A stretch of DNA of 64,000 bases, from positions 44,268,001 through 44,332,000 of the forward strand of contig CM114271.1 of NCBI GenBank assembly GCA_050084515.1, written 5' to 3'. The notes below the pieces were generated by a model. That model saw nothing but the letters and a program-made list of their open reading frames with translations, was not told where the DNA came from and ran no database searches. Made by a program: the position numbers and the translations under genes. Shown one piece after another: positions 8,861 to 40,077 of the stretch (positions within the stretch are counted from its first letter, which is position 1; each line of letters starts with the position of its first letter). This DNA is from Blasia pusilla. Taxonomy: Eukaryota.

Positions 8861-8962
8861 TTTCACTCTTATTATACATGAGAAAGATGCGAGGGGGCGG
8901 GGGGAATTCGATATTTGCAGGAAGGCAAGCGAGTTGTCTCGGTGGGGAGCCCTAGAGACGCT

Positions 8963-12004: not shown

Positions 12005-12369
12005 GGGTTGCACGGGTACCTCGCCTTGTTATCCCAAGATGAGGGAAGCGTGCAACCCCCCGGTCTTCGATGGGTTGCGTGGGTACCTCGCGATGTTAGC
12101 CCAAGACAGGGAAGGCATGCAACCTGTCCGTCCCGGACAGGTTGCCAGGGTAGCTCGACTTGTTACACGAGGAGGACGTATGCGTGCAACCCATGGGTCT
12201 TGGGCAAGTTTCTGGGCAACTCGCCCTACATCCCCAAGACGCAGGAAGCGTACAACCCATCGGAGACCGTCAAGTTGGCCGTGTTTCCACGTCCAAAGTT
12301 CCATAACGGCCGACATGTCGCCGTTGGTACGACGGTGCAACCCAACGGTCAGCTCAACGGCTCAAAAAG

Positions 12370-12377
12370 TATAAATA
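12370..12377 (+). promoter_or_regulatory. Putative TATA box of the cargo gene (copy 1)
   Basis: tataaata followed by ctcatttc. Conserved in copy 2 (27112-27119) and lies ~200 bp upstream of the conserved ATG (MTRKK). Confidence 0.55.
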
Positions 12378-12581
12378 GCCGAAATTTTGCTCATTTCCGT
12401 TTTTCATTTCACGAGTTCATGTGCTCTTCCGCGCAGCTGCTGACTAGATACCTAGGGGAGAGAGGAGGGTAAGGGCGCTTCATCACGAAACGATCACGGG
12501 GATTCATCGCGAGACCATTGGAGGGAATTTTTGTGCAGGGAAAGAGACTAGACTGTCGAGGAGGAAACATTGACGGGAACC

Positions 12582-17043: not shown

Positions 17044-18835
17044 GTTCAAAGAACTAAAGGACCCAGCTTGACTGAAGCGTTTTGGAGTAGGGATTTATTG
17101 GTTACCAAGGACAGAGCACATATTGATACTGGACGGGTGTCGCCTTGCAGAGCGTACAAGATTTACTGTCGAGGAAGGCGGTGGGACTCAAATTAGGTTA
17201 CATGGGACCGTTATGGTGTATCTAGGAGGGGGGAAAGGCTCTCGAATTCCCCAACATTTTTTATCCCCGTCTACAATCGGCCAGAGGAGCCACTTGTATC
17301 CCAAGACATTCCTTTTGTACAGGAACCTAGGAGAGTTAGGAGTAAATTTGTAGATGACAAGGCTGAAGAAATCATAGACTAGATCAAATGTACATTTCTG
17401 AGCTTCCTCGGAAATGTACATTTTTTAATAAAGATGTAATAAAGGATGAGAATTTTTTGATCCATGATGGTGTTTGTAAATTTTTTTTGAATATCTTTTT
17501 TGGTCTTGTCGATTGTGTTGGTCTATCTACTCAGACTGTTTATTTTGCAACCCGTCAGATTCCGACAGGTTGCAACTTCTCACAATATTTTAACCACTTT
17601 CAGGCAACCTGTCGGATTCCGACAGGTTGGCTGCTTGAGTGATTGGACTCTTTCCCTGTTAGTCCAACTTTTGAGGCATTCTGGCGGGCTTCTTCACTTT
17701 TGGCTCGTTTCCATATTATCGTCAAACCACTCGTAGGATTCTTCTCTTCTCTAAGATGTGTTGGATTCCTACTACCTTTTGGATTGCCATTTGGGATTCC
17801 CAACATGTTGGATTCTCATGGGGTGTAGGGCAGAATGGAATCACTTCTCAAAATCCTTCTTTTCTTATGGTAAGCTTGCTTGCAAGGGGTGTAACCCATC
17901 CGATTCTGACAGGTTGCAAGAGTTGCAACCTGTCGAATTCCGACGGGTTGAGAGTAGTACACCTTCTCGGATTCTCAGATTGAGGATCTGAATGAAGGGA
18001 CATGGGTGCGTCAGTTACTCTCTACTCCTAACAGCTAAATGCATTTTGCTTCAATTGTCGTCTCGTCTGATCACGTTTTCTTTTTTGATCAGTTCCTCTT
18101 TACTCCTAACATCTATCAATCTTTTGGTTCAATTGTCGTCTCATATGTTCATATTTCTCAATGGCAGAGAGAATGGTGAAACCAAGTTGTCAAACGCACA
18201 GCAGTCCATGGTATACTTTGTGCACCCATTCAAGAGCCCACATCATCAAATGATGTAATGAAAGTCTAAGGCTACCATGAGTGACAAGTGATTTGTTCTG
18301 TTGTGGAAAACCTCCTTATGGATGAGTATTGATGCCTTCTGCAAGAAGAGTCAACAATCATTTAAAGGCATTTCCTTTTGCCTTTCTTTTGCCCCTTATT
18401 GAGGAGTATTTTATGCCTTTTGCAAGAAGAGATGTCAATCCATAATGTCAACCATATATTCCGAGAAGTTAAACTTTGAATGGCATCGCAGTCTATTGAG
18501 ACCATAGTTAGAGTAGTTAAAAATACCCGTGGGCATAGCTTAGTATAGACTGAGACATGCAATGTGAAGAAACTTAGGCTCACATGGAGAGTGATGGAAG
18601 AATGTTTGTAGTGGTCTTATGATGTCCACTTGTTTTTCGCCCCCTCGAAAAAGGAGGTTACTTTAGGCCCGAATGTGGTCCACCTGCTTCTCTCTTCTAA
18701 AGATTTCTTTTATTTTAAAGCAAATTTTTTTTTCAAATATGTCAAAAAGTTTTGAAGAGAGGATGCAGATTTTGCCCTTTTTTTTTTAAGAGAGACTCAC
18801 CTCTCTTTCTCTCTCCTGCCAGAATACGAGCCCCC

Positions 18836-21800
18836 CACAAACACACACGATCCCATGCTAACTCATGGCATCCATACACACAGGCAAGAAGTACCAAAAT
18901 ATCTTCAATCGCTCCCCTAGCTCGTGGTTAGGTCCTTCTAACTCCAGATAGCCATCTATCCCTACCTACCACGACATACATCTCTAGACGCCTTCCTGTC
19001 TCCATGTCACAAAAAAAGTTGTTAGTTTTTAGTCGCCTTCCTGTCATCCATATCACAAAAAAAGTCAGAATCGAAACCTACCTAGTATCTCTTCTATGTA
19101 TATTTGGGACACATCCATCGTCTTCGAGGAACCCTAGTGAGAGGTGGCGTCAGACATGCCATATGCCAACTAGCATATGGCATGTCTAACTTGAACATCC
19201 ATCATAGACTAGCATCGTGGCCGCACCACGGGCAGAACCACACAACATACAACGCAAGCATGCAAGAACTACTGCTAAGCTCTGATCTACTCTACCATCA
19301 ATGTTAGGAAGGTGAAATCGCGCACAATTATGCACATAATCCCTCCATACCATACCATCGTGTCCCTCCAGCAAGAAAACACTCGATGGCAAAACGTCAC
19401 GCACTCTCAAGATAGTGCGTCCTGCAGTCACATCCAACGTCATCGGTGTCGTCTGTTGCAACTAGACATAATCTCCCTGATGAAACCTCCAAATAGTTGG
19501 TCGATAACCACCACCCCAAATAGTCGCATACCTCAACGTATCCCGATGTTGTGTAATCTCCAAGTTCTCGAACGCCATGGGCATCACTCTCCGAAATAAC
19601 TCAGCCCTCTCAGAACATGCTTGCATCCATACATCTAAGTCATCAAGGTCTAGCACCTCACCAGCATCTTGACGAATGGCCGTAGGTAAATCTCGCTCTC
19701 GGCCATAAAGTAGCAAGTACGGTGAAAAAGACACTAAGGATGCCTGCCTACTGAATCTGTATCCCATCCCCAACCAGGGCAACTGGAGGTCCCAATCTCC
19801 TAGGTGACCTCTCTGCAAGCCATACTTGCGTAAACCCCTCTTCACCGTTTGCACAACTCTCTCCGCTAATCCATCCGTCTCGGGATGATCTCGCGAAGTC
19901 ATGCGGTGGTCGATCAGCGCGTGATCACACAAGGTCTAGAACTCACCGCAAAACTTGGTACCCTGGTCTGTCAACACCTCAACTGATACGCCATAATGAC
20001 TCAACACTCTATCAAGGAAGGCATAAGTTACTCCCTCACTCGCTTTGTCACGCAATGCAACCAACTCAATCCACTTTGAGAACTGCTCGACCATCACCAA
20101 CACATAACGACTGTGACGCTCTATCAAAGGCATAGATCCTGCAAAATCCAAACTCCATCTATATCCTTAGCCCATAATCGGTAATGGATGCAACTGTGGA
20201 GTTGGAGCATTGAACGATGCTCGGACCCGATCACACACCACGCACCTGCCAACAAACTGATGAACGTCAATCTGCATGCCTCGCCACCAATATTGAATCT
20301 GGAGCAAGTTGTACATCCGCTTCATCCCAAAGTGACCCAACTCCTTGTGGGCATGTTGCACTAGTTGTGCTCTCCGTGAAGGATGCGGCACTATGCCTAC
20401 GATGCCATCCTCCCAAACCCTCAAAACATGTGTCCCCTCCCTACGGAACCGTCTAGCCCGCTGTAGGATCCGATCCTGCTCTCTAGCACCCACAGTGCTC
20501 GCAACGTTGCTTGTACGAAAGTACTCCAAGACTTCTCCATCATCATGAATATCTCGGCCACTTGTTGTCTCACTCACTGGCCTCGGGATCCAAGGACTCT
20601 CCACTAGGCCTCGCCATCGAAGTCTCCACACTCTGGTTCTCCATAGCATACATGCCTAAATAGGCTGACGCGTGCCATCATGGCATTGACTCCTCATCAC
20701 TCTCTCAATAGAATTGTCAGGAATGAGAGTTTCCTCTGCATGGACATGTCCCTCAATCAAATCACTAGGCCAAGTGATGGCACTGCTAAATGCTGCTAAG
20801 ATCGCCATCTCTCATGGTCGTTGCTTGATCATTACACGTGTGAATCGAACGGGTAATGAGCTAAGGCGCCCATCACCTGACTCCCATCCTAGTCTGTAGG
20901 ACCTACTTGTAATCTAGGGAAAACCCCATCGGGTATAACACTGCTCCACCAACCAAGACGTCGTAGGACTCTCCATCAGTCACTATCGCCTTGGCTCGCA
21001 CCATGGACTCATCTATAGGGTGTCTCGAGCGAATCCTCACCACGACCTCTTGTCGGGTGATATACTATGTGGTAATCGCTCCACCCAAGGATCTCTCTAT
21101 CCGGAATGGACAACGCTCCACATCGGCTTTCGTCAAGCCCAATCCTCTTAATGACGCTTTCCCCAACATTAGGGGTTGCGCTCCTGAATCCAACAAGACG
21201 AGCTGCGGACTAAAAGCTCTACCTCCGGGATTCACCAACTGGAAGACCTCTCCTTGGTTATCTAGCAATACAACACCAGGAGAAGCCATGGCACGCTCTA
21301 TCTCGGGTCTAGCGGGCATCTCCGCCATCCTAGGAGCCGCAGCCTGCCATGAACCTCACGTGGACGGCCCGAGCATCCGCTTCAAGGGCCGGTCCATCAC
21401 CTCCTCTCTAGTCACCTATGAACGTGATGCAAGAACTCCAACTCCACGTTCACATAGTGTAGCGGCCAGCCAAAATCCTTGGCGAGCGTACCCCCCAACG
21501 TCATAACATCGAAAGCAGAAGGGACGTGGTATACAATGGTGGCCGCCCCCAACAACGTGCTCGACACATGCCCCTCTTGAGCATCAACAATAGGAGTCAT
21601 TGCACTCGCCTCTCCCATCACCCTCTGTGCCTCCACACCAACAACATCACCAACTCTCAAGGAACTCTGATAAGGACCCATCGATGGAGTCCTCATCGCC
21701 TCAGACAACGTGAAAGATTGAGGAAGCCTAGTCTGTTTCCTGGCTTTCCCTCGCTATGGATCCAACTTTGCGGCTGCTCCACACATCACAATTGTGGCTG

Positions 21801-21836
21801 CCTCCATTTGGGCAACCCCGCATATCCAACCAGGAT
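18836..21836 (-). mobile_element. Gypsy-type DNMT retroelement copy 2, internally deleted
   Basis: Protease (VLLDSGAQPL) joins directly to the pre-integrase linker at ~20707. Integrase (DFAG, TDQG, DGLAERVVQ) and a decayed PHD remain; MTase, RT and RNase H are absent. Confidence 0.9.
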
Positions 21837-22246
21837 GAGGTGCGGTAAGAGGAGAGGAAGAGAGGAAGAGAGGAGAGAGGAGAGAGGAGAGAGGAAACTA
21901 CCTTCAACCGAAATAGATACTTTTTTTTGAAGAGAGTTTCCGTTGGGTTGAAGAGAGGAAACTTTTTGTGTGAATTTTTTTGCACTTTTTTGTTCATTTA
22001 TTAAACAATCCCACAGTTTTTTGTTCCTCTTCCATATTTTGGCAACCCCTTTGAGTCCGACGAGTTGCAAATTGCACAAAATTTACAAAACTGAGAAATC
22101 AGTGGAATCATAAGTGTGGAATCAATCACTTTTTCCATCCAAGGTCTGGAAAAAATCTATCATTTGCCCCGGGCTGAATAGAGTTCAAGCTCACAGTGAA
22201 GGTTGAGAAAAAATAAAAGTACAATCTTAAACTTCATTTTGCATCC

Positions 22247-25200
22247 TCAAAGTGGTTTGTTTAAAATACTTCGAACTTCTTTGAGGGACAGAATTGGTTG
22301 GTGGATTCCTACTCCTACCTCCGACTCTCTTAAAACTACCAGCAACACATAGTACATGTGCTTACAAGGGAAATACCTTTTGCCACTTGTCTCTCTTTGG
22401 ACAAAGTCATCACATGAACATGCGGGAAAGCAACAGATGTGCACCACATACACCCCTATGACACTTGAATTTACAGTGTTGTTCCTGACCCAATACATCC
22501 TTCCTATTCCATTGCCACTCATGACATCTTTCGTGGCGATGATCTCCATTTTTGCCTCCCGAGCTGCTACAATTCGTTTTGCTCTCTCCACCGTTGGCCT
22601 ACACATTCTGTTTCTCTTCACCCCATTTCTAGACTCAAACAAAAATAATGGATTGAGATCATCCACCTTCTCCGGGTACATTTTGACATCAATCTTGGGT
22701 TGAATACGAAAATGCGAAGGTCTCTGTAATGCTGAACATGCTCCAAACTTCCCCGTCTCACGAGTCTGAAAGCGGCACTTGTAAGATTGTCCACCGTCTT
22801 GAGTGCGATTCGTACTGCGGCGATGGGGCCAAATCGTGGGGGTATTCTCGGGAGCTCCAATGGCAGCCGGATAAGACTTCGGAAAGCGCAAGATTCATTT
22901 GGGCAGAAGAAGTACTTCAATTGATCCCGGTCCTCGTGAAACGATCAAAGGTTTTGAGTCCCCAAAACCAGGCAAAGTGGTCGTCGGTCCTTATGCATTC
23001 TTATTTAGGAAAGTGCCGCATGCTCTCCTAATGCCATCGATTCGCCTGCGCAGTGGGTCCACGTCCTGGGTTGCTCCAAGATATATGCCATCGTTTTAGG
23101 TTGCAATCCACCTCCATTACCGGAATCCCATATTGTTGAACCACCCCAGTGACAGGATGTTGCGAACTTCCAGCAACGGAGGGCTTTTGAAATAAAACAT
23201 TCACTGATTTTGGAGAAGTAACTCCATCACGGATTTGGGACGGGTCCGGGGTCCCCGAATACCTGGGCGGTGTAATTTCCTCATCCAAATCAATCACCGG
23301 ATTTGTTCCTCGATGCTGCCTCTTCACCTGCCTGAAGTCAAGATACTTATCTGGTCTCCACGAATCTCGTTCGGACTGCTCTACCACCATCTGTATGGGA
23401 CGTCTTGAAACCCGCCCACGAATATCCCCACCTATGTGTACGTCTTGCTCGAGTGGAGTTCCAGCTACGCACCGGTTGAAGGCTTCGACATACAATTTTT
23501 CATCACCAGATCTCACAGCCGCCCTAACATAGAGCTCGTAGATCGACGGCCCTTTTCCTTTTGTTATGCCTTTTGTGAGGAAGATATGGGATGATTCAGA
23601 CTGTAGCATTGCTCTTGCCTGATCTTGTTGGCATGCCTCCACAAGTGAAATTCGTTGGCATGCTTGTGACGACCTCGAAGAGGAATGAACACTTTCTGCT
23701 CCACTTGTGTTAAAGGAGGGCATTTTCATGAACGTTCAATCCTGCAACGACGGCAATGTTAGAAGGGAACGAAAATAACCAGAGTCAAAGAAATAAGCGA
23801 CCTGTCGGAACCAGACGGGTTGTAGGCCCGAGGCATCCCATGAACGACTCTGCGACCCGTCGGGTCTCGACGTGTTGTAACCTTAAACCCACCTACTGCA
23901 ACCCGTCGGAACCTGACGGGTTGCAAGGCCAAGGCATCCCATGAACGACTCCGTGACCCGTCAGGTCCCGAATGGTTGCACACTCGGGACGACACCAAAC
24001 ATCAGGATGCAACCCATCGGTTTCCGTCGGGTTTTTCGGTTTCGTCGAGTTGTTCGGCAACCCGTCGGTTTCCGTCGGGTTGCACACTCGGGCAACCCGT
24101 CGCATCCGACAGCTTGCTTGGTTTCTTGGGTTTGAAATCCATATAATTCCCACGCTTCTCACTATGAGCTACAACTTTACAAACAATTCTCAGCGTGAGC
24201 TTGACAAGACAAAATAGTGAACTCACCTGCCGCATGAAGTTTCCCCATTGTCTCATATGTACAGTCCACCAACTCAACCAAGAGCACAACTCTTTGTACT
24301 TCCCCTCAATAGCATGCTTCCTCCACCACCCATGAAGTTCTTCCTGGCAGTCCATGGCCTGCTTCAAGGTTTTGCTGTCCTTGCAACGTTGGAGTAGAGT
24401 GACATGCTCTGTCCTCTTATTCTCCTTGATGCAAGATTTGGTGTACCGGGTCACAGACTGTTGTCAATGGAAAGCATCCGACCTTTCCCTCTCCGGTTGA
24501 ACCTCTCCATCCCAGAACACTTCCCGGATAGCAATCCACTCAGTTTGTGCATTGTCTGCGATGAACCCATAAATTTATGGAGGTGGCCTTTTGTTTTCCT
24601 TCACCACTTCCAATAAGAGTAACCAGCACATCTTCAAACTGCCAACGTCTTCTGCCTTTACTTCACACACAAATATAGTTTTGAGTCCCTTCTCCACATG
24701 GTCATAAACGTGAGCACCCATCGTCAACCATCCGTTCAGCACTCTGTAGCAAATATCAAAGCTGACCCAGCTCACGTAAAGATCTTCCCCTTCCCTCATT
24801 CGATCTATAAGATCGAGGCCACTCGAGGGACCTATGGTTGACATTTTGAAGACATAGGCCCTGGATCCCTTGCCTCCTTGGCCCATGAACTGCCATCTCT
24901 GAATGAATGGAAATCTGGAGTTGGCCTTGATTCTGGCGATGGCATCCATTTCGGCCGTCTTTCCATCTAGAACTCGTATCTGACGCAGCAAATTCCGGAA
25001 GCATTCAGGATCAGCGAGAAATGCGAGATTTTCCCAGAGTTGTTTCTCCTCAACCGCCGTGATCTCGCCCTATCCAGGGATTCCAAGCAATTTTTCACAA
25101 TTTTGTGATGCCGTTGTGAGCTTGATCACCCCGGGCTTTGAACCCGGAGAGTTTCTGAAGACCTCGGCTACTTTCTTCGCCACATCCTCCTTGATGTGTT

Positions 25201-26236
25201 TTTGAATTGCATCGGTCACAGGATGAGTGTGGGAGCCAACATGAATTGCCAGCCTTGTATACTCTGACGTGGAGCCCAAGTCTTGGACAATGAAAAATAT
25301 GTATGCAGGACACGCTCCAACGCAGAAGGGCGATGCCTGACAATGAAGACATCGATGGCCTCCCGGCGGTATTGTGGCACCCACCTCGTATGGAGTTTCT
25401 GCATTCTTGGGGGGGAATTGCGACGTATTGACTCGCCCGTTGCGCTCTAGATACGGGCATGCTGGACTTCTATACTCCAAGGCTCCCACGCATTGGCCGC
25501 GGGAGACAATCCAAGGACCATATGGGATGGAAGCACTGGTCCGTTGAAGCCTGCACCATCGATGACAATCAGACTTTCTGTCCATACCCTTCAGGCATCC
25601 TCCATCCTTCTTTTGAGCAGGAGCAGCAAGTGGAGGCAACTCAAAAATGCAATTACCATCGTACATGGCGGCGGCTAAATGTCGACAAGAATATGCTTGA
25701 ACATTTTCAAGGGCGAGACGAAAGCAAACTATTGCCCGATACTCGCAAGAGGAACAGTAGGCGGACCACAGGGCCGACCGGTGTCGACAGATCCGGCCGA
25801 GGTTGATAACATCCGAATCTCTTCATGAAGAACAACATTGTTACGAGTGTGCGGTTGGAGTCGGCCGGATCTGCGGCAGAGCTTGGAGTTGCAAACGAGA
25901 GCTCGGAGCACTAGGAAATTCTAGACCGTCTACTTGGGAAACGGACGAATTCGAAGGCGGGCCGTAAACTCTGTATTGACCATTTGCGCGGGTAGGAGAT
26001 TCCATACTTTACGGTGCGAGGTCTTTGGCTGGACGTCTCACCTATTATGTCTTCCGTACCTTCCACCTAACATCTTTGGATACAAAGATGGTTCCAATTT
26101 GAAGAAGAAATCGAAGCAGGACATAAAATTTTCATCCCCTTTGCTTTTAAAGACTCACGAGCTTGGGGTCGAATGATTTTTGATTGAGGAAGGGCCGCGG
26201 ATGATCGCCACAAGTGAGCTTAACATAATTATCCAT
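22247..26236 (-). pseudogene. MULE-family DDE transposase with N-terminal GCM/WRKY-like Zn domain and C-terminal SWIM finger
   Basis: Zn domain (CLHCQ..CPAYIF..IHVGSHTHP), first Asp WVSFDI..TMGAHVYD, second Asp GFIADNAQ with ERSDAFH (C/DxxH signature, read manually at ~24580-24465), Glu in SGAESVH, SWIM CSCDDF..CKH. GT-AG intron at 24226-23742. Start at 26236 is inferred. Confidence 0.85.
23790..24115. repeat. 27-bp palindrome cluster inside the transposase intron
   Basis: Several gcaacccgtcgg-N-ccgacgggttgc variants lie between the splice sites at 24226 and 23742. Confidence 0.85.
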
Positions 26237-26291
26237 TCCAAGAAGATTCCTACGGGAGGAGCGAGAATGAGAATGAGAATGAGAATATTTA

Positions 26292-27119
26292 ATTTATAGT
26301 GAATAGGAAACAGATACTCGATGATTTTTACCGACAAGATGAATTCGGTGGGGAGATTGTCGACACAATGGATCCAATTCAGAACACATTCAATTGTGTT
26401 GCAATATGTTACCGGATTTGGGGGAAGAGGGTCGCGCGCATCACTTGGAACCGTCGGAGTCCTGGTAACTCGAAATTACCGAAGCTTACGAAGCCGCAAC
26501 CCGTCGGCATCGGACGGGTTGCACGCTTCGCTAAACATTGTCGGCGAGCAACCCGTCACTCTCCGACGAATTGTTGGGATACCGCTCCTTCTTGCTCGAA
26601 GATGCCGGAGGCGTGCAAACCGTGTGTTCCCGACAAGTTCCGCGGGTGCCTTGCCTTTGAGCCCAAAGACGGCGAGGCGTGCAACCCGTCGCCGTCAATG
26701 GGTTGCGCATGGCGTCGCCGCTTGTGGTGTAGCGGCCGGACTCCGACGACTTGCACGGGAAGCCATCGTTCCTAACCCTTGATGAGGGAAGCGTGCAACC
26801 CAACAGTCTCCGAAGGATTGCCCAAAATACGTCTCGTTCCCGTCCCAAACACGGCGGAGGCGCGCAACATGTCGGTCTTCGACGGCTTGCGCGGGTACCT
26901 CGCGTTGTTTTCCGAAGACGACGGAGGCGCTCAACCCGTCGGTCTCCGACGGGTTGCTTGCGCACGTGGCGACGTTCGCAGGATGGCGGAGCTACGCAAC
27001 TTGTCGGACTCTGACGAGTTGCAATTTTTCACGTTCGGAATTCCGTAACATTCGGCACGTCGCCGTCGAAAGGACGACGGGATCCATCGGTCAGCCCAAC
27101 GGCTAGAAAAGTATAAATA
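26292..27119. promoter_or_regulatory. Putative bidirectional promoter region (TATA on - at ~26292-26298, TATA on + at 27112-27119) containing palindrome copies
   Basis: The two genes are head-to-head, with tataaat upstream of each inferred start. About 8 palindrome variants lie at 26496-27022. Confidence 0.5.
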
Positions 27120-28589
27120 GGGCAGAAGTCGCTCATTTCCGGTTTCTCATTTCACGATCTTCATTCCTCACTCCTCACTCTCCCGCGCAGGAGCTGATCA
27201 GATACGAAGGGGCATTTCACGCGGCGACACATCGCGAGTCGATAGGAGGGAACGAGAGCGAGACGGTTCGACGGAGCGATATCGGGACGATTCGAGCTAA
27301 CCATCAAGGCGAGACGAGCTCCCATCTCGACATCAGCAAGGCGACTGATCAAGGGATTCGTCGTGGACATAGGCGGAGGCATTTCTGGCAAAAATGACGA
27401 GGAAAAAACAAAGCCAACAAGTCCGGGAGCTTCACTCCCAACTCCATTAGGACTCATGCGTCAGCTTCTCCTGCGCCTCGTTTGGCGAATGAAATTATGC
27501 AGTAGGAAATCGAGGAGCGGGAAAGGGAAGCGGAGATGCACAACCAAGTGCTTCTGGCGAGACGTGTTCAAGCGGCGCTAGATAAACAGAACGAAGAGGC
27601 CGAGACGTCGCAGGCCTTGAAGAAAAGGATCGCCGATGAAAAGAGAGAAAAGAAGCGTCTAGACGCGTCAGTGAGTAGGGCGGAATTGGCTAAAGCGAGG
27701 CGGGAAAAAGCGATAGCCATTGACGATAGCCCTGCCCGTCCAACCGCAAGTGTTGAGATGCGGGAAATGTCCCCCACGAAGTCCGGGGACACAATCAACA
27801 TAGTGGAAACAACACCAGTTCAAATCGATGACGACAAGGTCATGAGGACCGCCAGCGTGGAGATGGTGGACATGGCGGAAGAAGCCGGAGAGCGGTCATT
27901 CTCGACTCCAAGCCCGGCGGAGGACATCGACCTCTATCGGATCGAGGAGTTCCTGGATCGATTTGCCCCTGTCTCGGACAAGTTAGTGGTCAAGAAACCG
28001 ACTCCATTTTCGAAAGCGGTAAGAGAGGTTTAGGTTTTTTAATTATGTGAATTGCAATTCATTGGGATCTCGGTGTAGCTTATTCCTCTTGTCCTTTCGA
28101 CGGTGGTAAAGCCGATGGCACTCATGGAGGGCCCAACGCCCGAGGATTCCACTCTGCCGATTAAGGACAATGGAATACGTCCGCGAAATAAAATCCGACG
28201 AGGACATCGCAAAGCTAAAACAATCGGCGGTGACATCATCCTCGTGGGACAGTTTTCCTCCCTTCTATGTTCAGCCTTACGACGAGCATGGAACCCGAGC
28301 TCAGTTACCGAGGAGGACTTGGAAAATCTCGACACATTCGGAGGATGCGAGACCAGGACTTTGAAGGCAAGTTGAGGGCACGGAATTCAGCTGGATGAGA
28401 AATCTGCATTTCTTCATTTGGGATGGAAATCACAGGTTCATGGCGTGGACCAAGTTTGGGGAGGAGCGCCCCAACTCATTGGAGGCACAATTATGCGTGA
28501 AGGCAGTGGTCCTTCACCCATACCCTCATCACATGGCGACGGTGGAGATGGCAATGCATGCCATGAACACGTAAGTATCTTTAACACTT

Positions 28590-29250
28590 TCGCAACTCGT
28601 CGGACTCCGACGAGTTGCTCGATTGATGAATGGGTTAGGTTTGTTTAGGCAGAAAGCAACTCGTCGGACTCCGACGGGTTGCTAGACTGCACGGTTTTCC
28701 GGATGTTTTTTTAAGATTGACACTCGTCGGACTCTGACGACTTGTTTGATTGAACATAGATTTAACTAGTTTTTGGCCCAAAGCAAACTGTCGGAGTCCG
28801 ACGGGTTGCTCGATAGGCCGCCTTGTGAGGTTGTTTTTTTAAGAAGATTGCAACTCGTCGGACTCCGACGACTTGTATGATTGAACATAGATTTAACTAG
28901 TTGCTGGCCCAAAGCAAGCCGTCGGAGTCCGACGGGTTGCTTTGGGGCAAAAACCTTCTAAACATGTAGTCACTCGAGCAACTTGTCGGAGTCCGACGAG
29001 TTGCATTCTTAAAAAAACAACCTCACAAGGTGGCCTATCGAGCAACCCGTTGGACTCCGACGGTTTGCTTTGGGCAGCAACAACTAGTTAAATCTATGTT
29101 CAATCATACAAGTCGTCGGAGTCCGGCGAGTTGCAATCTTAAAAAACATCCGAAAAAGCGTCGATCCAACAACCCGTCGGAGTCCGACGAGTTGCTTACC
29201 TGGCATTAGCAAATCTGAATGCAACCCGTCAGACTCCGACGGGTTGCGTC
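28590..29250. repeat. Intronic palindrome array forming a long fold-back
   Basis: About 12 palindrome copies. Spacers are also inverted duplicates: 28802-28840 vs 29011-29049, and 28860-28902 vs ~29083-29125. Confidence 0.9.
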
Positions 29251-31429
29251 ATTTAGCTTGTTGCTAGAATCCGACCCTGAAGCATGGCGACCGTCGAGTC
29301 CGGCGGGTTTGCGAGGAACCCATGTAATTTCGACGGGTTGAGTTTGGATGTGCGAGATTGTATCGGAGGGAATGTCACCCACCATTGGATCGGATGCGAT
29401 CGGGTGAGGAAGGTGCTTACGACGCACCCGTGAGAGTACAGGGGGTTCTTGGGCGATGCCCTCGTCAATAAGATGCTTGCAAAGGGTGCTCAGATTAAGA
29501 AGAAAACTTGGGCAAACAAGTCTATTTCTCAAGATGCAGCCGTAACCATCCTTTGGTGGTCGAAGATACAGGCCGTGAAGAAAAGCGCCGACCGAGTGGA
29601 GCGGAGGGAGAAGGTATCTCGCCTCAGAGCGCCAAATTCATCAAGCTCCAGATCTCTGCAACGAAATACACGGCGAGCAAGATGCAGCGATACATCAACA
29701 TTCTCAACCCCGAACTTGGTCCGAAGTTCTACCAGGAGCTCAAGGCGATTATCAAGCATCAGCGGAAGAGGGATGAAGATCCGCATGGTCGGATTGGGGA
29801 GAAGTGTGTCGGATCGCGTGCATCGTTTTGCGTTATCCGGGATTAGCGAGTTCAGGAGGATACGATCGATGAAAATCGATCTCGAGGGCTTAGAGGCCCG
29901 GAAGAGGGCGGCACACCATCCTCGGGTGTGTCCGATCCGATGATCTCGCATTGGCTACGCGAATGGGCATTATGGGACGCGTTGCGGGTAATCGGGAAGT
30001 CCGTGCTGGACGGTCTGCAAGCGGAGCTCAGAAGATTAGAGCCCATTCCGCCAGAAGCAAACCTTGAAAGTTCTGGAGATTACGAGGTTTGGCTCGACGA
30101 CATCCGGGACAAGCCAACCAAGAACCCTCGATTCAAGACCATGTTCAAGGTTTGCGTCCTCCCTCGTGAGCTTGACGAAGAAGTAGAGGGTAACAAACGG
30201 GATCAAGCGAAGAAGAAGCGAGATCTGACAGAAGCAGACGGCCGATAATGTTCGACTAAAAGCGCCCAACGGATGGTATTCGGTACCTCGTCGGTGTAAG
30301 AACGCAGTGCGTGGGGAAAATTACCGGTAGCCTTGAAATTGTGGGCTTTACCGCCGGATGCAGAGACATTCTCCATGTACGACGTGGAGATGGGTCAGCA
30401 CATGTCGGATTGGAAGGTGGAGAATTGCCCCATTTGGCTCGACTTCAAGCGACCACTGAAGACATCACGGATAAGGACTTACGAGTGCTTCATGATGCAG
30501 TGGCCTTAGGACAAGACGACATCCCCAATTTTGTCGGCTGAAGACTTCTTCGGAGGAGATGCGAGAAGAGCAAGCCCACGAGACAGTTGAGTTGGCTTCC
30601 AAGGTCCGGACAGACCAAAGACAAATCCACAAATGGGTCTCTAAGGCAAGCGAGGAAGGGAAAAATTCAGAGGCCGAGACTTCCCAAAGAGAGCCTGAAG
30701 ATGAGAGGCCGGAGAGGCGGAATCGTCCGGACGAGCAGGAGAGAGGGTCGGACTAGGTCTCGGCCAAGAAAACGCCACGAATCCGAGGTCATAGAAACCC
30801 GACAAGCCGTCCCGGACTAGGGAGAAGCGGAAGCGAGAGGTGCCGGGTTGTCCCAAGGAGAATACAGACCCATCATCCTTGGGAAGACACAGACAAACAA
30901 CGACCGGACAAGCGTCCTCCTTGATTCACCTCTTTCTTGGATGAGTGAACGGCTTGATTCTCAAGCGTCAGCGCCATCGAAAAAATTGACAACGCTGGGA
31001 CGGAAGCTCCAACGAAATGGGCACGCTGCCTGGGCGGTGAATGGAGTGGTGGAAGAGGTTGCGGTGGATCTCTTGATCGCCGATCTGCCCCTGGTGGTTG
31101 CGACTTTGGGGCGAAAATCCGGCGGACGAGGTACCTGAGTGGAATGCCGCTCACTTATGACCGATTGCACTTTTGTTCTCCTTTGCGACGCCTATCGAGT
31201 GGCAGGGTCGCTTCTTGGTGTTGATTTGGAGGGAGCGAGGACGAGCTCTTCAACCTCCGGTCGTCAAGAGGTCGCTAAAGTGGAGGACGGCACAATCATG
31301 GATCATAAAAACGAGTACCCACTCCGATCCGCAACGAAGTCGATTTGGGTAAGGCTCAATTCTGTACAATAATTTCAATTATCTTATAATGATGTGTAGA
31401 ATGAGAGTCGATGCCTGGGTTTTTTCCGC

Positions 31430-31795
31430 GAGCAACCCGTCGGAAGGCGACGGGTTCTTGGCTTAGAGCAGCCCATGCTCGGCTGAGAGCAACCCGTCGG
31501 TTTCCGACGGGTTGCATCTTTCCCACATACACAGGGAAAACCGCGGTGTACTTGCAACGGTTCCGGCGGGTTGCGGTTGATTTTGGTTTTGGATGCAACC
31601 CGTCTAATAGCGGCGGGTTGCTATCGACGGTTGCTCAGGCGAGCATGGGCTGGTCTGAGGCAAAGCAACCCGTCGCCTTCCGACGGGTTGCATCCGAAAA
31701 CCAAAATCAACTTGGAAAACCCAAAAGCAACTGCAATCCGTCGGGTTCCGACAGGTGGGTCTGGGACAAAACAACCCGTCTGACTCCGACATGTT
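31430..31795. repeat. 27-bp palindrome cluster in the last intron of the cargo gene
   Basis: About 7 variants between the GT donor at 31349 and the exon resuming at ~31871. Confidence 0.85.
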
Positions 31796-34255
31796 GATCC
31801 AAAGTCAGTTATTGAAAATCTTCTCAAGGCGACTTCTTTAGTTTCTGACATTGTTTCGTCTTTGATTCTGGATGGACCACTCCTACGTGTACTGCTTCGT
31901 TCGGCCCGAGCACAATTTCCAAGTGTTCAAGATCTAGGATCCTTTGGATCCATGCTCAGATAGGTACAGCTTAGATAGTTTGTACAATTCCCCCCCGGGA
32001 ATTTACATGCAAGACAGTACCCCGCTTCTGGGAGGAAGGGAAAAGTCGCCAGCCTTGATGCAAACGCTCATCGAGCTCTGCTCAAGGCCGGGTGACTTGG
32101 TGTTCGACTTAGTGGTCCTTTCAGGGGCGAGTATCGAGGCGCTGGCGAGTGGCAGGAACATTCTCGCCTCGAGGAAGGCAGAAGCTGTTTGACCTTTGCA
32201 AGGAGGCAAAGCGTAGAATCTGAAAGGCTCGTTGGGGCGTACAACTCTCCCACGGCCGAGAGCTCGGTTCGAGCCACCCTTGGTAGTGACTCCATCGTCA
32301 CTTCCAACGATTCCCAAAATCGGGAGGGCAAGGCCGAAAGTGATTTTGCAAGAGCTCTCAGACGATGACGAGTGAGTTCAAAGAACTCAAGGACCCAGCT
32401 TGACTGCAGCGTTTGGAGTAGGGAGTTTTTTGATAATTTGGCAAAAGATTTCATAGAATAGATCAAATGTACAGTTCCGAGCTTTTTTCGGATGATATAA
32501 AGCAGAAGATTTTTTCGATCGATGGTGGTGCTTGTAAATGTTTGGTGATCATTTTGTCTTTTCGAATGTGATCGTCTATGTACTCCACGGTCTTCTACTT
32601 TGCAACCCGTCAGATTTCTCCTGCTTGCAATTTTCACTTTATGACCATTGCAACCCGTCGGATTTCTCCTCCTTGCAACTTTTTGCTTTTGACCATGGAC
32701 CCTTTTACCACCTCCAGGTAACGTGTCGATTCCGACAGGTTGCACGATCGGACCCTTTCGGATCGGCGATCTGGCGGGCTTCTTCCTGGCACCCTCCCCT
32801 CAACTCGTAAAAAGGCGGCGTGGCGTCTTTTCTTCTCTCTCAGGCGTGTTGGATTCCTTCTACCTGTGCGGTTGCCATAGTGGTATTACCGGGGACGGAG
32901 GAGATATTGATACTGGATGGGTGTCACATTGCAGAGCGTACAAGGTATACTGCCGAGGAAGGCGGTGGGACTCGAGAAAGGTTACTTGGGACCGTTATGG
33001 TGTACCTAGGGGGGGCCAAGGCTCTCGAATTCGCCAACATTTTCGATCCCCGTCTACAACCGGCCAGAGGAGCCACTTGAATCCCAGGACATTCCTTTGG
33101 TACTGTCACCGAGGAGAGTTAGGAGTAAATTTGTAGATGACGAGGCTGAAGAAATCATAGACTAGGTTCAATGTACATTTCGGAGGTTCCTTAGGAGGTA
33201 ATAAAGGACGAGATTTTTTGAACCCATAATGGTGTTTGTAAAAGTTTTCTGGAATATGTTTTGGGACTTGTGGAGATGGTGCAAGAGAAAGGCCTAGGAG
33301 CAGGTTGTCCAAGAACAAGTCAAGAAGATTGTACAAGGTGATAATGCAGCCAAGTCACTCCATTGACCTCAAGCCTAGAGGAGACAAGGGAGATGGTGTA
33401 GGCACTAGGGAGTCTCAGGGTATCCAATGAAGGAGATAGAGTGCTTGATTCTTTGTTGTAGAGGAGGGTTTGAACCAAGGGGTGGATCTGATTGTTAGGG
33501 CCAAGAAATGAAGAATAAGGGGCTAAGAAGAGGTCAATGGAGGCTGAGCTCAAATGCTTGGACTCTTGTGGGCTAGAAGATTCCTCATGGAAGCCTAGAG
33601 GACCTCATTTGAAGGCCATAAAGCTTGAGAATCCAAGGGAGAGATCTATGGAGTTGAGAGGATCAAGGAGTGATTTTTGGAAGATTTGTGCGAGGTGGAG
33701 CTAAGTGGAGGTGTGAAGGCGAGGGCGGGGCTCGAAACAGATTGAGAAGAAGCAAGCATGGGAAGAATATAGAGGTAGATCTCACCTTCAAGCATGTCCA
33801 AGAGACAGTCGAGCCTATGCCATCAATGTTGCTCAAGAGGCTTTAGTTAGGGCAGGTTGAAGTAGATGAGGTAGAAATTTGGTCAAGTAGATGCCTTGGA
33901 GTAGATGATTAGGGTTGGCATCCGGGTGGTCCTCCAACAAAAATACCAAGGGCACTGCTTTTTGTTGACCGAGATGAGGAGATGTTAAGAAACTTAGGCT
34001 CACATGGAGAGTGATGGAAAAATGTTTGTAGTGGTCTTATGATGTCTACTTTTTTTTCGCCCCAAGGAAAAAGGAGGTTTTTTTAGGGCCAAATGTGGAC
34101 CACAACCTACTCTCTTCTAAAGATTTAATGGATTTGAAAGCAAACAGAAATTTCAAATATGTCATAAAGTTTTGAAGAGAGGAGGCGGATTTGGCCCTTT
34201 TTTTTTGAAGAGAGACTCTCCTCTCTTACTCTCTCCTGCCAGAATACCAGCCCCC

Positions 34256-35230
34256 GACGATGGATGTGTCCCAGATGTACATAGAGTAGGTAGTTCTTCA
34301 TTCTAACTTGTATCTTTGACATGGATGACAAGAAGGCAACTTACGATGGGGCCATATGAGCACCTGGCCTTCTTGCTCTTAACGTCGAGAGATGTATCTC
34401 ATAGTAGGTAGGGATAGATGGCTATCTGGAGTTGGAGGGACCTAACCACTAGCTAGGGGGGCGATTGGAGATATTTTGGTACTTCTTGTCTCGTTGTTTG
34501 GATGCCATGAGTTAGCATGGGATCGTGCGTGTTTGTGTGTGTGTTCGGTGACAACGATGTATGTTGTGTAGCGATGTGAATGCGCACGAAGATTTTCACG
34601 TCTTTTAGGATATATCGGTGAGATCTAGTAGAGCGCCTTCGTGAGAAGTGGTGGACAGGCTCAGTTGGTCGAGGATGACCTGCTAAGGCCCCGGAAGCCT
34701 CAGCAGGTCATCGTTTCGGCTCATTTGGAGCCATATTTAGGAACTTAATATTTTAGATAAGTATCATTTTGAGTATATGATCCACTTTCTATTTTTGGTA
34801 AATGATCCTTGACCTTCTACATCAGGTCAAGAGCCAAAGAGGTGACTTGGGAGCATAGGTTACCATGGAGAGAGCTTGGGAGAGGGGAGGGGTCCCAAGC
34901 TCAAGGAGAGAGAGCTTGAGAGCTCATTCTCTCTTTGTTGAACCTCTTGGCATGAGGCGGCAGAGCTATGGTCTTGCTTGTCTTGTGTGTGTAATCCAAT
35001 CCTCTCATTAGGAGAGTGGGTTTGGGTTTGACATTGAGAGACACATGTGAGAATGCACACATGTGAGAACTATAGTGTTGTGAGAGAGATTTGATCTTTT
35101 TTATTGGAGATATTCTGGTAATTCTTGTCTCGTTCTTTGGATGCCATGAGTTAGCATCGCATCATGCGTGTTTGTGTGTGTGTTCGATGACAGCGATGTA
35201 TGTTGTGTAGCGATGTGTATGCGCACGACA
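34256..35230 (+). mobile_element. Gypsy-type DNMT retroelement copy 3 (end of PHD, 3' UTR and B1-A2-B2 end)
   Basis: RWMCPRCT-stop, purine tract aggggggcg, B1 34464-34591, A ~34594-35102, B2 35103-35230 ending ...cgaCA. Confidence 0.9.
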
Positions 35231-38200
35231 ACTACGTAGCCGTTGACGTTGCTTGTGTTGCCGTCTATGTCCTCCACAACTTTCGTCCATCGATGCCGTC
35301 CGTCCGGATCCGTGGACGGCTACCTAGTGCCATTCTTGCACCATAAAAAATAGGATGGTGGATGTTGTGGACCGCTGATTTTGCGATCTTTACCCTGGCC
35401 GCTGGTGTCACATTGGAGGAGTCCAACAACGATGTGACTGGGAGTACTATCCCGGAGGCTAGGTGATTTGTTGGATTGATGGGGTCCGAGTGTTCTTGTC
35501 ACTTTGCTATGTTGTGAGTTGGTAGCCGCTCGAGGACGTTTGAGTACCATACGGTGATGCCAATAGCAGCAACGCGCCGCCAATTACCGCGTTGTGCTGC
35601 TCGTGGCCGTATCGCACCGTCTCGATCATAGATCCGCACCATCATTGGAGCAGAGGGTGTTTTGCTATTGAGGAGGGTATGTTTTTGAGTGCGACACCTC
35701 ATTACCAAATGCTGTGTCGGTTGTAGCCGTTCCGTGCCGCCAGTGCCGCACCTTACCGCTGGACCCGCACCGCACATCGAGGAGTATTGAGCATCGTTTG
35801 TACCAGAGGAGTACGACTTGCTGATTGGAGGAGTGTTTCTTCATGATTGAGTTGGGATCAAGGTTTGCAATTGCTGAGGAGCGATCAATATTTGTTCGGG
35901 TTACCCATTCTAGTCTTTTGCCCTGCACGTGTTGGGGAATTTTTGGGTATTGGGTGGTTATTTGGGGATATTGGGTTCCGTGTGGATGTTGAGACGTGTG
36001 TGGGATGTCGAGAGTTGAGGGTATGTTCTGTCGATGAGATGATAGGACAATAGCCAATTTTCCGCACCACGCCGCTTGTTACCGTAGAGCACACATCTTA
36101 GTGAGAGAGTGAAGATTGGGTGCCCCATGTTAGATTGAGTGATTGAGTGATTCCTTGCAAGGTTGGGAGTGATTTCGTAAGAGGGGTATGAGGGTCATCA
36201 CAGCATCCTTTTGGGACTTTGAGAGGCGAGGTGGTGGACCTGAGAGTAGCTCTAGAGGGTTTACTCGGAGTGGTGCGAGGTTTCGAGGGTCTCCACGTGA
36301 GGGACTATCACGATCTCCTTCTATGTCATATTCAGATGAGGGAGAGAGTATAGAGGAGTTTGGAAGTGCATCACCGCATATATTGAGTGGTCCTACCACT
36401 TGGGCATACGAGATGGACGACTGGGATAAAGGATCGCACAGGTTTTCAGGTGCTATAGGCACTATAGAGCTACACAACTTCATTGCAGATTTAAGGAACT
36501 CTAGAGAGTTCAACCCATTCAGAGCATGGAACGGTATGATCTAGCATTTAGAGGGGGTGCCCACGGACGACTACCATGAGTTATCCCACAGATATGCCTA
36601 GGAGATCAAGGCATGGCGACTCTACTATGGTCCAGATTATGTGTCATGGACTGAACCATTTCCCAATGAGGAGGAGAAGTCAAGAGGGACCTCTTCCTCT
36701 TCCGCGAGAGATGTTTTAGCAGGGGTAATACTTAACTTGTAGTGGAGCATTTGCACCGTCCAGTCGGGTTTGTCCTAGGTTCAACCCCGTGGTTGAGTTC
36801 TTTGTTGAGTTGCGTACGAGCTACGAGCGGGTACAAACGGAGAAGTTGCGGAGCATCCCGACTTCCAGAGGCGCCGGGTGAGAGTTTGCATGAGGGCTAT
36901 CCCCGCTTGCGCCGGTTGATTAACGTCACTCAGGGGGTGATAGAGGCTCAGGCTATTCAGTCATGATACACAATGCTGGATCGGACCATGCAGACACAGA
37001 TGCGGGAGGGGGTGCTTCTTATGAACACCTCACCCACGTTGAGAGATATTTTTAGGACCGTCGAGAACATTGAGCGCAACATGGTGGAGGAGAGCATAGC
37101 CACCAGGAGTTCTGGGCGAGAGCAGCCAAGAGTATCTCCACCACCAATATAGGAATGTGGATTCCGAGAGAGGATTGTGGCACCACGATCACATGGAGGT
37201 TATGGAGAGCCTATGCCACAAAGACCCATGCCATTATATGTGACAGAACAGCAACCGATAGGTATTATTTGTTGGGCATGTGGTGGATCCCATCACCAGC
37301 CCGATTGCACTCGTCAAGGTCATGGACGTGTGCCTCATCATGGAGGAGGGGATGGTGCTACACCAGGAGGATATGAGTGTGACTATTGTCAGAGGTATGG
37401 TCACACACGCTTCATGTGTTTTAGCCTTCATCCAGAGTTACGTCCAGACCAAGGGCCAGAGAGGGCACCAGAGCGAGTAGCTGGTCGAGGTGGGCGTAGA
37501 AGTCGTGCATCAGGTGGTTCCGTTGGGGGACCAGGAGCTGGAGTTTCCCGAGGGGGTGGTGGAGTTTCCCACGGAGGAGGTAGAGTTCCACCACCTAGAC
37601 GCGTCCAGGGAGAGGTTGAGCGTGAGTCTGGGATGGCTACTTAGGTACAACAACTATAGCAGCACATTGCCGCTATGGCATTGAGGTTACCCGATGCCAC
37701 ATGCGTGGCATCGGCATCTTATGGAGGATCCTGGTTGGATGTGCAGGGTTGCCCATATGGAGACCGTTGCTCTTGTTACACGTGGAGCCATTGTAGAGTT
37801 GGATCCACAACGAGGGGAAGCCAGGAAACAGACCAGGCTTCCTGAGTCTTTCAAATTGTCCGAGGCGATGAGGACCCAATTGATGGGTCCTGATGAGAGT
37901 TGGTGATGTAGTTGGTGTGTAGGCACGGAGAGCAATGGGAGAAGAGAGTGCAACAACTCCTATTGCTGATGCTCAAAAGGATCATGTGTCGAGCATGTTG
38001 TTGGGGGCGACCACGATGGTGTACCGTGCTCCTTTATTTTTTGCTTCCGATGTTATGACGTTGGGAGGTACGCTTGTCAAGGTTTTCCGGCTGGCCGCTA
38101 CGCTATGTGAGCAAGGAGTTGGTGTTTTTGTGTCATACTTAGGGGTGATTGCAGAGGAGATGAAGGACCTGCCCCTGGAGCCTATGCTCGGGCCGTCCAT

Positions 38201-39549: not shown

Positions 39550-40077
39550 TCACATAGTCATATCTTCGTGACTAAACCAATTTTGTCCGCTTCTATAGTA
39601 GTCATGTAACTCTACTCTTCTAGTCATAGTACATGACTACATGAGGCCATACCAACATTTCAATAAAATAAAATGACTACATGAGTTGCCAACTATAACT
39701 GAATGGAGTATACTTGGTGCATTTTGATAGGATATTCTAAACTTTTGCGCACCAACCATGACTAAAGGAGTCGTTGGTGGTAACTAGAAAAATATACACA
39801 TATGACTAGATGAGTCGTACTCAAGTCCACATCATCATTCACATGTCACAACAATAGTCCATGTCATCAGTGACACATCACACTAAATAGTCCATGTCAC
39901 TGATGATGTGTCATTATTCCATGTCATCTAAGTGACGTGTCAGTCATGGCCTCATGACTACATCCTCAGGTCATATACCAACCTCCATCTAAGCTGACCA
40001 TCCTAGTTAGCCTAGTTGCCAAACAAATATGACTTGGCTTTTGTGTCTAAAGTAGTCGTCAGTCATTGTTAGTGGTG
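39550..40077. mobile_element. Possible CACTA-like terminal fragment
   Basis: Short subterminal motifs repeated in both orientations (catgactac / gtagtcatg), ending in tagtggtg (reverse complement CACCACTA). No partner end seen. Confidence 0.3.

Follow-up and report, generated by a model that had tools for sequence, protein, structure and literature searches.

A decayed transposon-like element of Blasia pusilla with a methylase-derived gene, a probable ParB-like gene and arrays of palindromes

The window analysed here is a stretch of 64,000 nucleotides from Blasia pusilla (GenBank assembly GCA_050084515.1, contig CM114271.1, forward-strand positions 44,268,001–44,332,000). It is eukaryotic in character and repeat-rich, and all coordinates below count from its first letter. 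Within it, bordered by retroelements, a ~7-kb unit is present twice, in copies that are colinear but diverged and have their cargo on the + strand. Copy B (21837–34258) comprises a transposase-like gene on the − strand and cargo genes on the + strand, all decayed, and copy A (12005–18838) has the cargo side only. The first cargo part is probably ParB-like, the second is related to DNA amino-methyltransferases, and a 27-bp palindrome recurs in both copies. A first-pass annotation had proposed, from the letters of this DNA, that a Mutator-like transposon carries a spliced gene for a ParB–methyltransferase protein of prokaryotic type. Here we follow up that proposal, beginning with the methylase-like part.

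Descent of the methylase-like part

The motifs that the first-pass annotation quoted from two diverged copies were all found, on the + strand in both A and B. VDLLIADLP occupies 31064–31090 in B and its counterpart VDLLIVDLP 15740–15766 in A; KSPALMQTL(I/V)ELCSRPGDLVFDL lies at 32043–32111 and 16702–16770, SGASI at 32121–32135 and 16780–16794, and SG(R/K)NI at 32148–32162 and 16810–16824 in B and A, respectively. In the window open reading frames (ORFs), motif IV therefore stands N-terminal to motifs X and I, which is a circularly permuted order.

Window ORFs gave consistent, though sub-threshold, matches to amino-methyltransferases in several collections. Pfam N6_N4_Mtase (PF01555) gave E values of 0.0027 and 0.021 (18.1 and 15.2 bits), and PHROG DNA methyltransferase families gave 9.3e-5 (ORF 16642–16902), 8.4e-4 and 4.2e-3. 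Nine type II/III methyltransferase models of PADLOC also matched, the best at 8.1e-4 (MTase_II, again ORF 16642–16902), and the best sequence matches in PDB were M.RsrI (0.023, the same ORF) and DpnA/M1.HpyAVI (0.23).

HMMER was run exhaustively over 1.84 billion representative proteins with a two-copy profile of the C-terminal half as query, and 24 proteins matched at E ≤ 1e-3. Five of these are repeat proteins with multiple matching stretches, which we take as spurious; in 15 of the remaining 19, N6_N4_Mtase is detected at E ≤ 1 (9 of 10 and 6 of 9 in two batches). The named relatives are two hypothetical proteins of Ceratodon purpureus and one 'DNA methylase N-4/N-6 domain' protein of Riccia sorocarpa. 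A family hidden Markov model (HMM), made from seven database relatives with the window sequence excluded, was run over every window ORF of 20 or more amino acids, 2090 in all. Three ORFs alone fell at E < 1: 16642–16902, the C-terminal half in copy A (2.6e-20); 31938–32189, the C-terminal half in copy B (1.4e-15); and 15710–15961, the N-terminal half in copy A (5.5e-5). The two ORFs of copy A match the HMM in the expected order, 15710–15961 at positions 16–77 and 16642–16902 at positions 168–239. By sequence comparison, these matches exceed what chance would give.

Profile and fold comparisons gave the same kinship. A profile of three relatives together with the window halves matched CcrM (8.9e-9) and M1.HpyAVI (1.3e-8) in PDB, covering motif IV through motif I, and the alignment of the family profile with CcrM runs from VDLIFADPPY to the end of the motif I region. 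The Rossmann-type methyltransferase fold was seen on a model of the Riccia relative (P0012), not on a window copy: the AlphaFold2 (AF2) model has a predicted local distance difference test score (pLDDT) of 66–82 in its core and 50 on average, and its best Foldseek match was M1.HpyAVI (1.9e-10, probability 1.00). CcrM, M.MboIIA and M.RsrI were the other top matches, with M.PvuII and the rotifer N4CMT (8s9m, 2.1e-7) also found. Through rank 40, the PDB fold matches of this relative were exclusively beta-class and Type III amino-methyltransferases. On these profile, HMM and fold comparisons, the cargo part is established as a descendant of the beta-class N6-adenine/N4-cytosine (N6A/N4C) DNA amino-methyltransferases with permuted motif order, as had been proposed.

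Several searches returned nothing. Word-based protein searches with the methyltransferase exon and with the 183-aa ORF gave no match, tblastn of the Riccia relative against phage records gave none at 1e-3, and a metagenome scan with the protein pattern gave none. The region ahead of the methyltransferase domain showed no significant similarity to the Ceratodon protein in hhalign (probability 0.25%, E 0.24).

Altered motifs and past selection

The suspicion that motifs IV and I deviate from DPPY/SPPY and FxGxG proved correct. Motif IV reads DLPS in copy A and DLPL in copy B in place of the catalytic tetrapeptide (D/S/N)PP(Y/F/W). The relatives have DLPE, DAPE or DPPT, so that the aromatic residue is absent throughout and the second proline usually absent. 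Motif I reads D-L-V-G/V-L-S-G-A-S (GLSGAS or VLSGAS), with the second glycine of FxGxG retained and the phenylalanine and first glycine replaced. Judged from these residues, canonical catalysis by the methylase-like protein is doubtful, and we infer that its methyl-transfer activity was altered or lost.

The changes do not look like the outcome of decay. Between copies A and B, the ratio of nonsynonymous to synonymous substitution rates (dN/dS) was 0.19 over 605 aligned codons (pS 0.48, pN 0.13), whereas the two alternative frames of this DNA gave 1.23 and 1.45; the frames for the comparison were picked by protein similarity, which biases the ratio to low values, but the contrast with the other frames is still large. 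By block, the ratio was 0.08 in the 18 codons around motif IV and 0.16 in the motif I block. The cargo gene was therefore functional while the A and B lineages diverged, and its odd motifs are not decay.

A separate 3′ segment (32871–33162 in B, 17087–17379 in A) is 79–91% identical in DNA between the copies, with dN/dS of 0.39–0.60 and no Pfam match. This segment may be an additional small ORF or non-coding sequence that acts in cis.

Structure of the cargo genes

The ParB-like gene, or the first exons of a longer one, spans 27398–28574 (+) in copy B, with a charged N-terminal part, IPLCRL at 28146, DGNHR at 28422–28436 and a TAA at 28572–28574. Its counterpart in copy A (12582–13766, +) begins with an ATG at 12582 and has an in-frame TAA at 13428, DGNQR at 13632–13646 and the shared TAA at 13764–13766. 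A small intron interrupts this part. In copy A (13220–13319, +, 100 nt) its boundaries, marked here by slashes, are CGG/GTAAGA ... AAGCAG/ATG in phase 0/0, and the frames are joined correctly; in copy B (28019–28114, +) the donor is present and the acceptor is mutated to CG. The ParB-like frame is followed by a spacer or putative intron (28571–29539 in B, +, AC/GTAAGT ... TGCAG/CC, with ten palindromes), which corresponds to 13763–14539 in A.

The large exon comes next on the + strand. In copy B (29540–31348) it holds ~330 codons without assigned function and then the N-terminal half of the methyltransferase with motif IV, and it is interrupted by several frameshifts and a 336-bp insert (30647–30982) present in B only; a second B-only insert lies at 32431–32885. 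In copy A (14540–16030) there is a long frame at 14521–15318 with one stop, and the N-terminal half lies in ORF 15710–15961. The methyltransferase-domain intron of copy A (16031–16534, +, 504 nt) has the boundaries TTG/GTAAGG ... TTTACAG/ATG in phase 0/0, and that of copy B (31349–31871, +, 523 nt) keeps the donor TGG/GTAAGG, has its acceptor mutated to GG and contains six palindromes. These intron lengths account exactly for the flanking frames. The last coding exon of copy B (31872–32372, +) includes MDHSYVYCFVRPEHNF, the motif X/I region (32043–32162) and an acidic tail, and it is broken by a TAG (31935) and by a frameshift close to 32168; that of copy A (16535–17040, +) includes ORF 16642–16902 with the motif X/I region.

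The cargo and transposase genes are all pseudogenes, carrying stops, frameshifts and mutated splice sites, and the frameshifts are independent. Copy B shifts frame three times in 29536–29925, where A keeps one 266-codon frame with a single stop, and A is shifted near 16650, where B is not. Because of these independent frameshifts and stops in two pseudogene copies, many apparent exons are ORF fragments. For the small and the methyltransferase-domain intron, the GT..AG boundaries coincide with breakpoints of A/B homology, and both introns are likely real on this pattern. The multi-exon gene of the first-pass annotation thus keeps two introns with fitting phases and loses many of its exons to pseudogene frameshifts.

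The ParB-like part

The first cargo part shows the layout IPLCRL(W/R)TMEY..E.....D.A.LK and, ~70 residues further on, FFI(S/W)DGN(Q/H)R(Y/F).AW, which we take to resemble Box I and Box II of ParB N-terminal domains. The Box II GxxR-type motif follows a beta-strand and has the form hhDGxHR; it is represented by FFISDGNQRYRAW at 13632 in A and FFIWDGNHRFMAW at 28422 in B. Pfam gave sub-threshold matches to DUF1015 (E 0.0053 in A and 0.13 in B), presumably kin to ParB, and to DndB (0.19). Among the Atlas language-model neighbours of this part, 16 of 30 belong to the ParB_N set (score 0.93). In the ParB-like block dN/dS is 0.05–0.30, and the block was therefore under constraint. For ParB-fold proteins, 10.1101/2025.10.10.680097 names a 'P motif (Box II)' that contains a conserved arginine, and it describes DndB as ParB-like. 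From its sequence, the first cargo part is somewhat more likely than otherwise to be a ParB/Srx-like nucleotide- and DNA-binding protein.

Palindrome arrays

Palindrome arrays, confined to the two elements with 41 copies, are new relative to the first-pass annotation. The 27-bp palindrome GCAACCCGTCGGA-N-TCCGACGGGTTGC was matched 23 times with up to 3 mismatches allowed, where shuffled sequence gave an expectation of 0. It is a looser pattern that finds the 41 copies, all within 12053–17950 or 23798–31796 and none elsewhere in the 64 kb. The element holds them in at least five places, among them introns of both genes, the 3′ part and the intergenic (or promoter) region. Six copies lie at 23798–24116, between transposase ORF blocks and inside the transposase gene, and five at 26497–27021, in 67-bp repeats between the divergent genes (12053–12144 in A). 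The array after the ParB-like frame (28593–29246; 13956–14422 in A) has ten copies at a spacing of 52–127 bp, mostly 61–67 bp, and the methyltransferase intron has six (31433–31796; 16130–16370 in A). A further cluster occupies 17548–17950 in the 3′ part of copy A.

Stem positions are 72–100% conserved and the central base is variable (45%), with a spacing within arrays of mostly 52–70 bp. Of 40 palindromes, 20 have GANTC precisely in the middle, among them all ten of the array 28593–29246; across the window, GANTC occurs 4.1 times per kb. CcrM is a GANTC enzyme, and the meeting of a GANTC centre with CcrM as the best profile match may be coincidence. A metagenome scan with the palindrome gave no match. 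In sequence, the palindromes look like candidate parS-type binding arrays. Because the same palindrome is also found inside the transposase gene, we assign transposase and cargo to one element, and this is the main evidence that they belong together.

Transposase-like gene and element borders

Remnants of the transposase-like gene extend over 22250–25822 on the − strand, as a 606-codon frame with three in-frame stops at 24005–25822 and further ORFs down to 22250. The proposed head-to-head arrangement with the cargo was thus recovered at copy B. CPAYIFF...HTHP (25220–25312) resembles a WRKY/FAR1-type zinc finger, and it is followed on the same strand by SFDICY (24746–24763), FIADNA (24548–24565), DAFH (24467–24478), GAESVH (23685–23702) and a SWIM-like CxCx15CxH (22358–22420; Pfam SWIM E 0.088). 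This order (CPAY...HTHP, SFD, IAD, DAFH, GAESVH, CxCx15CxH) was picked by eye against the expected pattern, and we take it to be that of a WRKY/FAR1-like finger, a DDE domain with [C/D]xxH and a SWIM finger, that is, the Mutator/FAR1 layout. SWIM fingers occur in Zisupton transposases too. From the motif order, we infer membership of Mutator; Zisupton or another superfamily may be the alternative.

The cargo side of copy B (26751–34258) is colinear with copy A over ~7 kb at 67–84% DNA identity. Copy B starts at 21837, the point where the homology of the flanking long terminal repeat (LTR) retroelement ends, and its extra leftward part, down to that position, contains the transposase-like gene. 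Copy A starts at 12005, where retroelement homology stops and homology to copy B begins, with the cut inside the upstream palindrome-bearing 67-bp repeats; it lacks a transposase because the retroelement truncates it there. On the right, a terminal region is common to both copies (33939–34258 in B, 18519–18838 in A; 84% identity), and both terminate at the same base (34258 and 18838). The part of the retroelement LTR region that adjoins this base differs between the copies in position and orientation, a pattern that independent insertions would produce. A candidate terminal inverted repeat (TIR) is GA-rich: 34216–34234 is an inverted match of 21859–21877 (18 of 19 bases, E 5.7e-4, low complexity).

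One Ty3/gypsy-like LTR retroelement surrounds the two elements in four copies or fragments that are 73–95% alike (~8962–12005, 18836–21836, 34256–39547 in inverted orientation, and 45457–55594). An integrase-like ORF lies near 20167–20655, and the copy at 18836–21836 has an internal deletion of ~2.9 kb relative to that at 45457–55594. Outside both elements, 234 bp are tandemly duplicated at 2177–2644 (93% identical). The G+C content is 34–40% at 4001–8000, 40001–46000 and 56001–64000, against 47–55% in the transposon nest, and the lower-G+C stretches may be host sequence. An Rfam search of the window for RNA families gave no match.

Interpretation of the element

We read the element, with a probability of roughly 0.6, as a decayed, once-autonomous cut-and-paste DNA transposon that carried a two-part accessory module, probably ParB-like and methylase-derived, together with arrays of palindromes. 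The second part is most likely a separate adjacent gene for a ~660-residue protein, the C-terminal half of which would have the beta-class amino-methyltransferase fold; its catalytic tetrapeptide is changed from (D/S)PP(Y/F) to D-L-P-S/L. The arrangement suggests that the element formerly recognised, and perhaps marked, its own DNA. In such a mechanism, the ParB-like protein would bind the parS-like palindromes and so recognise the DNA of the element itself, and it would recruit or cooperate with the methylase-derived protein, which could be a modifier of altered specificity or a pseudoenzyme that binds S-adenosylmethionine (SAM) or DNA. The outcome would be an element that is labelled, or shielded, against silencing by the host. 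A bolder version, to which we give little credence, is a plant-lineage family of DNA transposons with its own ParB–parS-like self-recognition, in which a ParB-fold protein on the palindrome arrays would direct a repurposed bacterial-type amino-methyltransferase to the chromatin or DNA of the element, possibly laying N6-methyladenine or N4-methylcytosine (6mA/4mC) at GANTC centres as a heritable 'self' label against silencing.

A number of observations weigh against the transposon reading or its parts. For the methylase, the gathering cut-off of PF01555 (26.7 bits) is reached by no window ORF and narrowly missed by the best relative (26.5 bits), and window ORFs stay below the gathering score of every Pfam family; we hold to homology with N6_N4_Mtase despite these sub-threshold scores because the family profile reaches 8.9e-9 against PDB. 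Ordinary methyl transfer is also hard to reconcile with the altered motif IV and with an FxGxG that is partly lost (GLSGAS). For the ParB-like part, ParB_N itself found no match in the Pfam search, PDB sequence searches with the ORF and with a two-copy profile gave nothing relevant, and PHROG, NCBIfam and PADLOC searches gave nothing; a single-sequence AF2 model, made with no alignment, had a mean pLDDT of 37, too low for a fold search. The proposed ParB assignment is therefore carried by motif layout, the DUF1015 match (0.0053) and the ParB_N-set neighbours, all of them weak signals. The palindrome is a candidate binding site.

The transposase-like gene matched no MULE, Transposase_mut or FAR1 family at Pfam E ≤ 1 (five ORFs and the 606-residue read-through), no transposase family in NCBIfam and, as a read-through, nothing in a word-based protein search. 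The Atlas neighbours of its core ORF (24578–25069, −) were AEP primase clusters (score 0.92, recognition 1847); we did not adopt an AEP primase reading of this core, the recognition value being below the stated 2300. What stands of the proposed Mutator-like element (MULE) transposase is thus a transposase-like frame with a Mutator-like motif order and the weak SWIM match. The evidence for TIRs is a 19-bp GA-rich match alone, ~22 bp inward from each end; the flanks are non-contiguous, different retroelement pieces, so that no target-site duplication is readable; and the linkage of cargo and transposase is seen once, copy A being truncated and without a transposase. The idea of a prokaryote-type modification gene carried by a eukaryotic DNA transposon accordingly keeps its methyltransferase ancestry, its introns and a DNA-transposon-like unit, with weak TIRs and a single linkage set against it.

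Other explanations differ in how they join the parts. The two cargo parts could form one spliced gene, encoding a single ParB–methyltransferase fusion of ~1000 residues like the ParB–N6_N4 methylases of phages. Both parts lie on the same strand in the same order in both copies, copy B has a perfect donor-like AC/GTAAGT at the end of the ParB-like frame, a TGCAG acceptor common to both copies falls exactly where A/B homology resumes, and the downstream part shows no start codon that is conserved. The ParB-like frame, however, stops at a TAA common to both copies; the donor-like site is in phase 2 and the next shared acceptor needs phase 1, a downstream frame that is fixed by the long, 266-codon ORF of A and by 6 of 8 substitutions on third positions; and the moss, liverwort and other relatives (349–810 aa) have no ParB-like domain at E ≤ 1. 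A fusion is thus rather unlikely, and because of the shared TAA, the phase mismatch and the relatives without a ParB-like domain, the sequence leans modestly towards two adjacent genes; the single spliced protein of the first-pass annotation is not supported in the form proposed, since phases 2 and 1 do not join. It is also conceivable, and unlikely, that the palindromes have nothing to do with the ParB-like protein and are transposase-binding repeats of subterminal type, foldback or MITE-like insertions (MITE, miniature inverted-repeat transposable element) or hairpin-forming satellite DNA. CACTA and Mutator elements do carry arrays of transposase-binding repeats, and the Blasia arrays lie in non-coding parts and differ in copy number between A and B. 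Yet the palindromes are internal, not subterminal, and are spread over at least five clusters; the 64 kb contain none outside the elements, and a conserved stem with a variable loop fits a dimeric binding site. The red-algal analogue (10.1101/2025.02.11.637652) likewise pairs repeats with a ParB-like gene.

That the methylase-like protein was an active N6-adenine/N4-cytosine methyltransferase by which the element marked itself, for example at GANTC centres, seems improbable. The conservation of fold and SAM-motif region under selection would fit, as would the best structural and profile relatives, CcrM and M1.HpyAVI, which are GANTC- and adenine-specific enzymes, and the GANTC centres of half the palindromes, with the array 28593–29246 complete. 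In both copies, however, motif IV is without its second proline and aromatic residue, as mirrored by DLPE, DAPE and DPPT in relatives, the first glycine of FxGxG is lost, and GANTC is common anyway in the window. We consider it very improbable that there is no single mobile element at all and that chance brought the remnant of an unrelated transposase next to a decayed cluster of host genes in a retroelement nest. The weak TIRs, the absence of a visible target-site duplication, flanks made of rearranged retroelement pieces and a transposase linkage seen once would all suit that account; against it, the 27-bp palindrome is present both in the transposase gene (six copies) and across the cargo region and nowhere else in the window, and two diverged copies share their end base beside different retroelement positions.

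Comparison with known systems

Among described systems, the nearest analogue is a cassette of accessory genes (PAG) carried by giant transposons of red algae. According to 10.1101/2025.02.11.637652, giant Plavaka elements of the red alga Bostrychia carry three such genes, and other red algae have homologues of them on Mutator and Zisupton elements; PAG2 combines PF01555 with SET, and PAG3 a ParB-like domain (HHpred E 0.29) with a 2-oxoglutarate (2OG) oxygenase. Tandem inverted repeats lie beside PAG3, the authors propose self-binding, and most copies are degenerate. On that description, the Blasia element is alike in having a PF01555-type methylase gene and a weakly ParB-like gene on a DNA transposon, inverted-repeat arrays by the ParB-like gene, and degenerate copies. 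It is unlike the cassette in that the ORFs tested give no SET or 2OG signal at Pfam E ≤ 1, and in that the nearest detectable relatives of its methylase part are bryophyte, not red-algal, the PAG proteins being compared by description only.

Fusions of a ParB fold with PF01555 are frequent in phages (10.1101/2025.10.10.680097), and ParB–HTH fusions (HTH, helix-turn-helix) with Dam occur in chlorophytes (Iyer et al. 2015, PMC4738411). The phage and prophage proteins of these sources resemble the Blasia cargo in joining the same two domain types, with a beta-class methylase, on a mobile element; they are prokaryotic or viral, intronless and single polypeptides, whereas the Blasia genes are eukaryotic, have introns, are probably separate and have an altered catalytic motif. 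Searches by tblastn gave nothing for the ParB-like part in phage and plasmid records, nor for the Riccia relative in phage records. Phage ParB-methyltransferases carry the canonical DPPY/SPPY. With the bacterial beta-class enzymes CcrM, M1.HpyAVI, M.MboIIA, M.RsrI and M.PvuII, the Blasia family shares motif IV before motif I, the profile match of 8.9e-9 and, in its relative, the fold (Foldseek probability 1.00); it differs from them in D-L-P-S/L for (D/S)PP(Y/F), GLSGAS for FxGxG and a long unrelated N-terminal region.

Eukaryotic 4mC writers offered no closer tie. Like the Blasia cargo, Marchantia MpDN4MT1 and the bdelloid N4CMT are of bacterial-type beta-class ancestry in a eukaryote, and the rotifer structure 8s9m is among the fold matches (2.1e-7). 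Unlike it, they are host genes, and MpDN4MT1 keeps TSPPY (10.1101/2021.02.12.428880), whereas the Blasia family is transposon cargo without SPPY. No kinship of the cargo methylase to MpDN4MT1 and N4CMT closer than that to bacterial enzymes was seen, so the suggested link to these writers comes down to a shared fold. Among plant transposons, VANDAL21 elements of the Mutator type encode VANC, an anti-silencing protein thought to act on repeated motifs in their own non-coding DNA, where it causes loss of methylation. The Blasia element is alike in being of Mutator type, if our assignment holds, with an accessory protein that would act on its own repeats; VANC is not known to be related in sequence, and its effect is methylation loss. 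Literature on ParB with methyltransferases and Mutator-like elements, and on PF01555 with transposable elements (supplements excluded), held no account of the bryophyte-related family as transposon cargo.

Implications

Transposons with their own tools for modifying chromatin or DNA are rare, and they show how mobile DNA evades silencing. The Blasia element is a decayed example, and among its headline claims the methylase half alone is firmly supported. It combines an altered but selected methylase fold with a binder that is probably ParB-like and with dozens of copies of a matching palindrome, which are restricted to the element, and it thereby defines a concrete candidate pair of protein and site. 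The same logic has lately been proposed for red-algal giant transposons; its recurrence here, with moss and liverwort relatives and another domain make-up, suggests a recurrent strategy in distant photosynthetic eukaryotes. For bryophytes, it follows that N6_N4 methylase domains annotated in their genomes may be transposon-derived and non-catalytic.

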